DNA from: Escherichia coli
GTDB taxonomy: Bacteria > Pseudomonadota > Gammaproteobacteria > Enterobacterales > Enterobacteriaceae
Direction: 5' to 3' (one strand)
Length of the DNA: 1,213 nucleotides
NCBI RefSeq assembly: GCF_003334315.1
Contig: NZ_QOWR01000121.1
The notes below the pieces were generated by a model. The model saw only the letters and a list, made by a program, of their open reading frames with translations. It had not been told where the DNA came from and searched no databases. A program made the translations under genes and the position numbers. The stretch's first letter is position 1, and each line of letters opens with the position of its first letter. This document shows, piece by piece, positions 1-852 of the stretch.

Positions 1-852
1 GTTTTCAAATTGTTCCGGACTGAGGCCGCCACACCAACTGTGCCGCCGCCACCGATTGTAATCACATTCGATATAATTAAACACCGTTGCCCGCATTATT
101 TCCCGGCTGATAAAGTGTTCTCCATGGATACATTCCACTTTCAGCGAATGAAAGAAGCTTTCCACGCAGGCATTATCGTAGCAGCAACCTTTTGCGCTCA
201 TACTTCCACGCAGATTATGCCGCTTCAGTTGCGCCTGATAATCTGCTGAACAGTACTGGCCTCCACGGTCCGTGTGAACGATAACGTTCCGGGGCCTCTT
301 ACGCCGCCACAGCGCCATCTGCAGGGCATCGCAGGCCAGTTGCGCCGTCATGCGTGGCGACATTGACCAGCCAATAACGGCACGTGACCACAGGTCAATG
401 ACCACTGCCAGATACAGCCAGCCTTCATCTGTACGTAAGTACGTGATGTCTCCTGCCCACTTCTGGTTCGGGCCACTGGCGTAAAAATCCTGCTCCAACA
501 GATTTTCTGACACAGGCAGGCCGTGTGCGCGGTAGCTGACCGGGCTGAACTTCCGGGAGGCCTTTGCCCTCAGTCCCTGACGGCGCAGGCTTGCCGCCAC
601 GGTTTTTACGTTAAAGGGGTAACCCTGAGCACGCAGTTCATCCGTCAGGCGTGGGGCACCGTAACGCTGTTTTGACCGGGTAAAAGCCGCGAGGACAACG
701 CTGTCGCAGTGTTGGCGGAACTGCTGACGCGTGCTTATCCTTGTCCGCCGCTGACACCACGTATACCAGCCGCTGCGGGCCACCCGGAGCACGCGGCACA
801 TTGCTTTGATGCTGAACTCAGCCTGATGTTTTTCAATAAAGACATACTTCAT
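1..852 (-). CDS. insF: IS3 OrfB (InsF-like) transposase catalytic domain, DDE/integrase-like (rve). It is C-terminally truncated by the window edge: 284 codons are present and about 4 codons plus the stop lie beyond position 1.
   Basis: Minus-strand translation from the ATG at 852..850 is [36 protein letters not shown]...[35 protein letters not shown]...[16 protein letters not shown]...[25 protein letters not shown]...LSPEQFEN, open to the window edge with no internal stop. Conserved catalytic residues are D (450..448, GDITY), D (270..268, HTDRGGQY) and E (162..160, NACVESFF), with D-to-E spacing of 36 residues. It is absent from the ORF track only because no stop codon falls within the window. 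Confidence 0.93.

Follow-up and report, generated by a model that had tools for sequence, protein, structure and literature searches.

A 1,213-Nucleotide Stretch of Escherichia coli DNA Corresponding to Canonical IS3, with the Predicted DDE Triad of Its Transposase in Place

Introduction

The DDE catalytic core, the frameshift and the ends of IS3, an insertion sequence of Escherichia coli, have been described for decades. The frameshift signal of IS3 is an A_AAG slippery tetramer accompanied by a stimulatory pseudoknot (PMC4066793), and IS3 cassettes are amplified when a fused insEF' transposase in a single frame is provided in trans (PMC8875745). Of the other characterised members of the IS3 family, IS911, IS2, IS150 and ISSau2 follow a copy-out-paste-in pathway that passes through a figure-of-eight and a circle (PMC3219604, PMC5771124), and in the insertion step of IS3-family elements both ends serve as donors (PMC3219604). 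In the retroviral-integrase superfamily, the catalytic aspartates are located on strands 1 and 4, and the glutamate is located on helix 4 (PMC3219604).

In this study, a 1,213-nt stretch of E. coli DNA (hereafter the window, which means the whole of the stretch analysed) was compared with these systems. A preliminary description of the window, made from its letters alone, had assigned the catalytic triad of a transposase to three residues of an uninterrupted reading frame and had proposed on this basis, together with an intact orfA, frameshift site and left terminal repeat, that the copy is probably able to transpose. The sections below identify the element, locate the triad and assess its conservation, compare it with the active site of the integrases and describe the two ends of the element.

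Results

Identity of the element

The window almost certainly represents nt 1–1213 of IS3, an E. coli insertion sequence of 1258 bp, in minus-strand reading, with region 160..450 as the catalytic core of its transposase. In megablast searches, many RefSeq E. coli records were 100% identical across all 1213 nt and were annotated as 'IS3-like element IS3 family transposase'. Of 5426 complete E. coli genomes, 4685 contained IS3 matches, and a genome with any match had them at a median of 3 places. One such record, locus L001 (NZ_CP025916), matches the window exactly at 601–1813 and continues for 45 more bases past window position 1, AAGAACCTCGCTTAGGCCTGTGTCCATATTACGTGGGTAGGATCA, which gives a complete 1258-bp element bounded by a GAC/GAC 3-bp target duplication (L001 598–603 / 1859–1861). 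Over element nt 4–1213, the window does not differ from IS3A of K-12 MG1655 (insE1/insF1). The minus strand of the window opens with TGATCTTACCCAGCAATAGTGGACACGCGG. The window is IS3 itself, a textbook element that is already known, and is no new member or variant of anything. In the strain that carries the L001 locus, E. coli 120899, the IS3 copy lies approximately 175 bp downstream of istB of IS100, an IS21-family element (L001 1–424).

The features of the window are collected in Table 1. On the plus strand, several ORFs run antisense to orfB and orfA, of which 10..249 (79 aa, TTG start) and 709..984 (91 aa, GTG start) are the two longest; they are regarded as mechanical ORFs inside a known gene.

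Table 1. Features of IS3 in the window, with window coordinates and the basis of each assignment
Feature	Coordinates	Strand	Basis
IRL, left terminal inverted repeat of IS3	1175..1213	-	Inverted-repeat pair in L001, arms 600-639 + 1820-1859, 73% complementary
orfA (insE), 99 codons + stop	849..1148	-	Translation, ORF list; K-12 insE1; NCBIfam transpos_IS3 profile positions 1-87
orfA product: putative small DNA-binding/regulatory protein; N-terminal part of OrfAB transposase	849..1148	-	
A_AAG slippery tetramer, programmed -1 frameshift joining orfA to orfB	882..885	-	Computed position and phase
orfB (insF), codons 1-284 of 288, open at window edge	1..852	-	Stop-free translation; K-12 insF1
orfB ATG (852..850) overlapping orfA stop (851..849) as ATGA	849..852	-	
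HTH_21 domain, orfB residues 53-102	547..696	-	Pfam PF13276, E = 6.4e-12
Pfam rve integrase core, orfB residues 126-222, with both putative catalytic aspartates	187..477	-	PF00665, E = 1.3e-27
D135 (GAC) = D234 of OrfAB; predicted strand 1	448..450	-	D in 110/110; aligned to the D of GDITH of STLV-1 integrase
D195 (GAC) = D294 of OrfAB; directly after predicted strand 4; motif H-T-D-R-G	268..270	-	D in 110/110
E231 (GAA) = E330 of OrfAB; predicted helix 228-242	160..162	-	E in 110/110; first residue of rve_2 match
K238 (AAA), conserved basic residue, 7 positions after E231	139..141	-	K in 105/110; aligned to HIV-1 integrase K159

Reading frames and frameshift site

The two genes lie in phases 0 and -1 and overlap as ATGA, and the orfB frame is open upstream to the slippery site. 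The frame containing the triad had been described as uninterrupted, which was confirmed by the translation, since the minus-strand frame over positions 1–852 comprises 284 codons without a stop from the orfB ATG to window position 1. In the orfA phase, the slippery region reads CTC CAA AAG GCC, and its context at 891..877, CCUCCAAAAGGCCGC, is the IS3 frameshift window that was used experimentally in PMC4066793. The identical L001 copy is annotated in RefSeq as 'programmed frameshift', with a CDS joined from two pieces, and the coordinates of this CDS give a complete OrfAB of 387 aa. The residue numbers D135, D195 and E231 count from the internal ATG of orfB and correspond to D234, D294 and E330 in OrfAB.

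Because the sequence is identical to that of reference IS3, the published pseudoknot is expected to be present in the window. A search of the window against Rfam 15 returned no matching family at E ≤ 1, including for the frameshift pseudoknot region (window 770..890, minus strand), so that Rfam offers no curated model of the IS3 frameshift element. The minimum free energy of the frameshift region, calculated as a nested-only fold with ViennaRNA, which does not model pseudoknots, was not distinguishable from that of shuffled sequences (z = -0.33). The ATGA overlap at the start of orfB could yield free OrfB through translational coupling; in the related element ISSau2, OrfB alone has been reported to lower transposition (PMC5771124).

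Position and conservation of the triad

The residues assigned to the triad, D135, D195 and E231, are encoded by GAC, GAC and GAA, and every coordinate given for these codons in the preliminary description was correct (Table 1). In the translation, D135 lies in KWAGDITYL, D195 in IVHTDRGGQ and E231 in NACVESFFH. The spacing had been called canonical, and this likewise held, with 59 residues between D135 and D195, 35 residues between D195 and E231, and K238 following E231 after 6 intervening residues.

Profile searches placed OrfB in the expected family, with a score of 339 bits for NCBIfam transpos_IS3 against a cut-off of 160. In Pfam, the match to rve (Table 1) was followed by matches to rve_2 at residues 231–284 (E = 6e-19) and rve_3 at residues 216–279 (E = 3e-9). 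Alignment to rve had been proposed as a check on the assignment, and it confirmed both aspartates but not E231, which lies beyond the end of the match at residue 222; E231, within rve_2/rve_3, therefore needed other anchoring. A HMMER search of 1.84 billion representative proteins gave 63,647 relatives at E ≤ 0.001, and an alignment of 110 sequences was composed of the OrfB of the window and 109 near-full-length relatives with 36–57% identity. In this alignment, the sole invariant columns were G65, D135, H193, D195, E231, H271 and P279. The spacing of 35 residues between D195 and E231 was kept in 108 of the 110 homologues, and a lysine was found at seven positions after the glutamate in 105. 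The match of the putative triad is far beyond chance. The residues that are invariant besides the triad across the 110 relatives are H193, H271, P279 and G65.

In principle, the catalytic acidic residues could instead be conserved carboxylates elsewhere in OrfB, such as D153 (in VIDLWS) and D226 (in YDNA), each of which is kept in 109 of the 110 homologues. This assignment is extremely improbable, because both residues fall short of the strict invariance that D135, D195 and E231 display (110/110), and because the profile alignments to the STLV/HTLV and HIV-1 integrases match the conserved integrase motifs to D135, D195 and E231 (see below). The predicted secondary structure agrees with this, in that the latter three occupy the positions of the superfamily rule, namely strand 1, the end of strand 4 and the fourth helix (PMC3219604), whereas strand 2 ends at D153, and D226 falls in the loop preceding helix 228–242. 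D153 and D226 were accordingly rejected as catalytic residues on the basis of conservation, integrase profile alignments and model secondary structure.

No observation made here speaks against the assignment of the triad. No mutagenesis of D135, D195 or E231 in IS3 itself was found in the literature searched. The catalytic role of D135, D195 and E231 rests on homology, and as a predicted role it is assigned as securely as homology can make it.

Equivalence to retroviral integrases and predicted fold

A search of the PDB with the single OrfB sequence gave marginal matches only (E = 0.007), which spanned the two aspartates without the glutamate. This search was replaced by one in which the profile of the 110-sequence family was run against all PDB sequences. 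The family motifs ..vWvsDiTY.. and ..vHSDrGsqY.. were then aligned to PNHIWQGDITHF and INTDNGPAY of STLV-1 integrase (E = 1.1e-5), and the D135 and D195 motifs were also aligned to HTLV-2 integrase. We take the GDITH and NTDNG motifs of the STLV-1 and HTLV-2 proteins to be the two catalytic-aspartate motifs of retroviral integrases. In a local hmmsearch against HIV-1 integrase, the sequence of which was checked only for the presence of D, D and E at 64, 116 and 152, vHSDrG of the family profile paired with IHTDNG (D116) and vaESFFatLkkE with VVESMNKELKK (E152, K159). This pairing makes D195, E231 and K238 the counterparts of D116, E152 and K159, respectively.

An AlphaFold2 model of OrfB, built on the alignment, had a mean pLDDT of 94.4. 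The order of its elements in the core is strands 131–141, 144–153 and 158–165, helix 170–183, strand 191–194, helices 198–211, strand 215–218 and helix 228–242. In this predicted RNase H-like fold, strand 1 contains D135, D195 comes directly after strand 4, and E231 belongs to the fourth helix, which follows strand 5. In a Foldseek comparison with the PDB, IS21 IstA, the STLV, RSV, MMTV, PFV and HIV integrases and TnsB were all recovered with a probability of 1.00. Both marks by which a protein is placed in the retroviral-integrase superfamily, a match to the rve profile and a predicted RNase H-like fold with the carboxylates in the expected places, were found for OrfB. Among the PDB matches, neither the family profile, whose best matches were retroviral integrases (E ~1e-5), nor the Foldseek search by fold recovered an IS3-family transposase. 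Among PDB sequences, no sequence similarity of IstA or TnsB to the family profile was detected at E ≤ 0.01.

The two ends of the element

Elements of the IS3 family have imperfect terminal inverted repeats with 5'-TG...CA-3' at their tips. The IRL opens with TGATC, and the first base of the element, T, is window position 1213, so that the window holds no left flank. The claim that orfA, the frameshift site and the IRL are undamaged is supported by base-for-base identity to the complete L001 copy, which is flanked by a target duplication, and by identity to K-12 IS3A from nt 4 onward. At its other limit, the window ends at nt 1213 of the 1258 nt of IS3, and the last 45 bp, with the whole IRR, the codons KNLA and the stop, lie outside it. 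In L001, the sequence continues past this point as AAG AAC CTC GCT TAG, and the IRR is present, ending in GGATCA. Position 1213 of IS3 is no feature boundary, as 15 nt remain to the end of the CDS and 45 nt to that of the element. The limits of the window look like those of a contig of collapsed repeats or of a cut where copies diverge.

The proposal that the copy is "probably transposition-competent" can be kept in part. It is appropriate in that the visible sequence corresponds to the canonical active allele, but it exceeds the evidence in that the window contains neither the IRR nor the final four codons with their stop. Transposition requires an intact DDE triad but is not guaranteed by it, and mobility is not established when one terminal repeat is unseen. 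IS3A of K-12 is instructive in this respect. This copy is annotated as 1255 bp and is without the first three bases of the IRL (TGA), which correspond to window 1213..1211 (L002 425–432; NC_000913.3 about 315229). It has identical ORFs yet an imperfect IRL, from which it follows that the integrity of the ORFs does not predict the integrity of the ends.

The source copy is probably complete by our own estimate. A right-end-truncated or interrupted IS3, in which the last 45 bp with the IRR and the orfB stop were lost by deletion or by another insertion, is unlikely, although several observations are compatible with it: in the identical RefSeq copy, neither a gene nor an annotated feature ends at nt 1213, where the window stops, interrupted IS3 copies do occur in complete genomes (the top matches H1–H5 are each in two pieces), and end damage beside intact ORFs is known from K-12 IS3A. 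Such a copy, with its transposase gene almost complete, would be immobile on its own and could at most supply a C-terminally altered transposase to other copies. Against such a loss, the window contains no junction sequence, and truncation is not positively shown. Furthermore, the opposite limit of the window falls precisely on the terminus of the IS, which suggests that the boundaries of the window result from repeat collapse or from the cutting of windows, not from biological truncation. Among E. coli records matching the last 200 nt of IS3, 4656 of 4733 had one or more places in which at least 80% of these bases were covered and which so reached past nt 1213, a rate (98%) that is per record, with only the best place in each record counted, and not per copy, and that cannot decide this copy.

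A more specific version, in which the copy would be truly cut at nt 1213 and orfB would read through into foreign DNA, is very unlikely; it would make the source a one-ended IS3 with an active or altered transposase that might serve other IS3 copies in trans or use a surrogate right end. The visible sequence is the canonical allele, the activity of which is documented by new IS3 insertions in K-12 (PMC5009759) and by the amplification of cassettes with insEF' (PMC8875745), and the mobility of the source copy depends on the 45 bp outside the window. Among the two-piece copies mentioned above, H1–H5 span 1253–2285 bp (e.g., NZ_CP128980.1 35356–36608 and NZ_OY754443.1 1120162–1121639) and are split by extra DNA or by IS1B or ISApl1.

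Discussion

The present results comprise the element identity, the open frames, the location and conservation of the triad, its integrase equivalence and the predicted fold. A possible mechanism for the element can be outlined, in which the metal binding, the reaction chemistry and the pathway are drawn by analogy from published work on retroviral integrases and on members of the IS3 family that have been characterised. Slippage of the ribosome by -1 at A_AAG (885..882) would fuse OrfA and OrfB to form the 387-aa OrfAB transposase. In its RNase H-like core, D234, D294 and E330 may coordinate divalent metal ions, and the 3' ends of the element could then be cleaved and transferred. Transposition would proceed by copy-out-paste-in via a figure-of-eight and a circular intermediate, and a 3-bp target duplication would be left.

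How often such a mechanism operates is a separate matter. It is conceivable, although somewhat doubtful, that the sequence is intact while the copy is effectively silent, because frameshifting, inhibition by OrfA and OrfB and weak promoters keep OrfAB low, in which case "competent" would have little practical meaning. In K-12 mutation-accumulation lines, 10 of 758 new insertions were of IS3, from 5 copies, and IS3 was described as rarely transposing (PMC5009759); both OrfA and OrfB lower transposition in the IS3-family element ISSau2 (PMC5771124). However, rare is not zero, since these IS3 insertions are real ones (PMC5009759) and burdensome plasmids in W3110 also gather IS3 insertions, under selection (PMC10379815), and the median of 3 IS3 places per genome having any likewise speaks against silence. 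A silent copy of this kind qualifies the main explanation, a canonical IS3 with its triad in place, and does not replace it.

The value of the present analysis lies in the residue-level confirmation of a canonical active allele; its import beyond correct annotation is little, and there is nothing unusual to seek in the window. It also provides a caveat for similar calls, namely that intact catalytic residues alone do not establish mobility if one terminal repeat is unseen.

Among the known systems, IS3 of E. coli K-12 (insE/insF, IS3 group) is the closest, with the same orfA/orfB layout, A_AAG context, left repeat and DDE residues. Relative to K-12 IS3A, the window is without the last 45 bp of the element, whereas it possesses the full TGATC start of the IRL that is absent from K-12 IS3A. 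IS911, IS2, IS150 and ISSau2 likewise possess two ORFs in phases 0 and -1 with programmed -1 frameshifting, an N-terminal region with an HTH and a leucine zipper, and a D,D(35)E core at the C-terminus in which a basic residue follows the glutamate (PMC3219604, PMC5771124). These elements belong to subgroups other than that of IS3, and the frameshift signal of IS911 consists of a heptamer, an SD sequence and a hairpin, in contrast to the A_AAG and pseudoknot of IS3 (PMC4066793).

More distantly, the cores of the retroviral integrases (HIV-1, RSV and STLV/HTLV) share the RNase H-like fold predicted for OrfB, in which the two aspartates lie on strand 1 and after strand 4 and the glutamate on helix 4. 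The identity to OrfB in structural alignments is only 12–22%, and the N-terminal DNA-binding domains differ. The integrases act on the ends of linear viral DNA, which they process, whereas the intermediate formed by IS3 is circular. IS21 IstA and TnsB of Tn7/CAST, which are among the best neighbours of the OrfB model in solved structures (Foldseek E ~1e-9, probability 1.00), have the same DDE/RNase H-like core and, as a point of difference, need a partner ATPase, IstB and TnsC, respectively.
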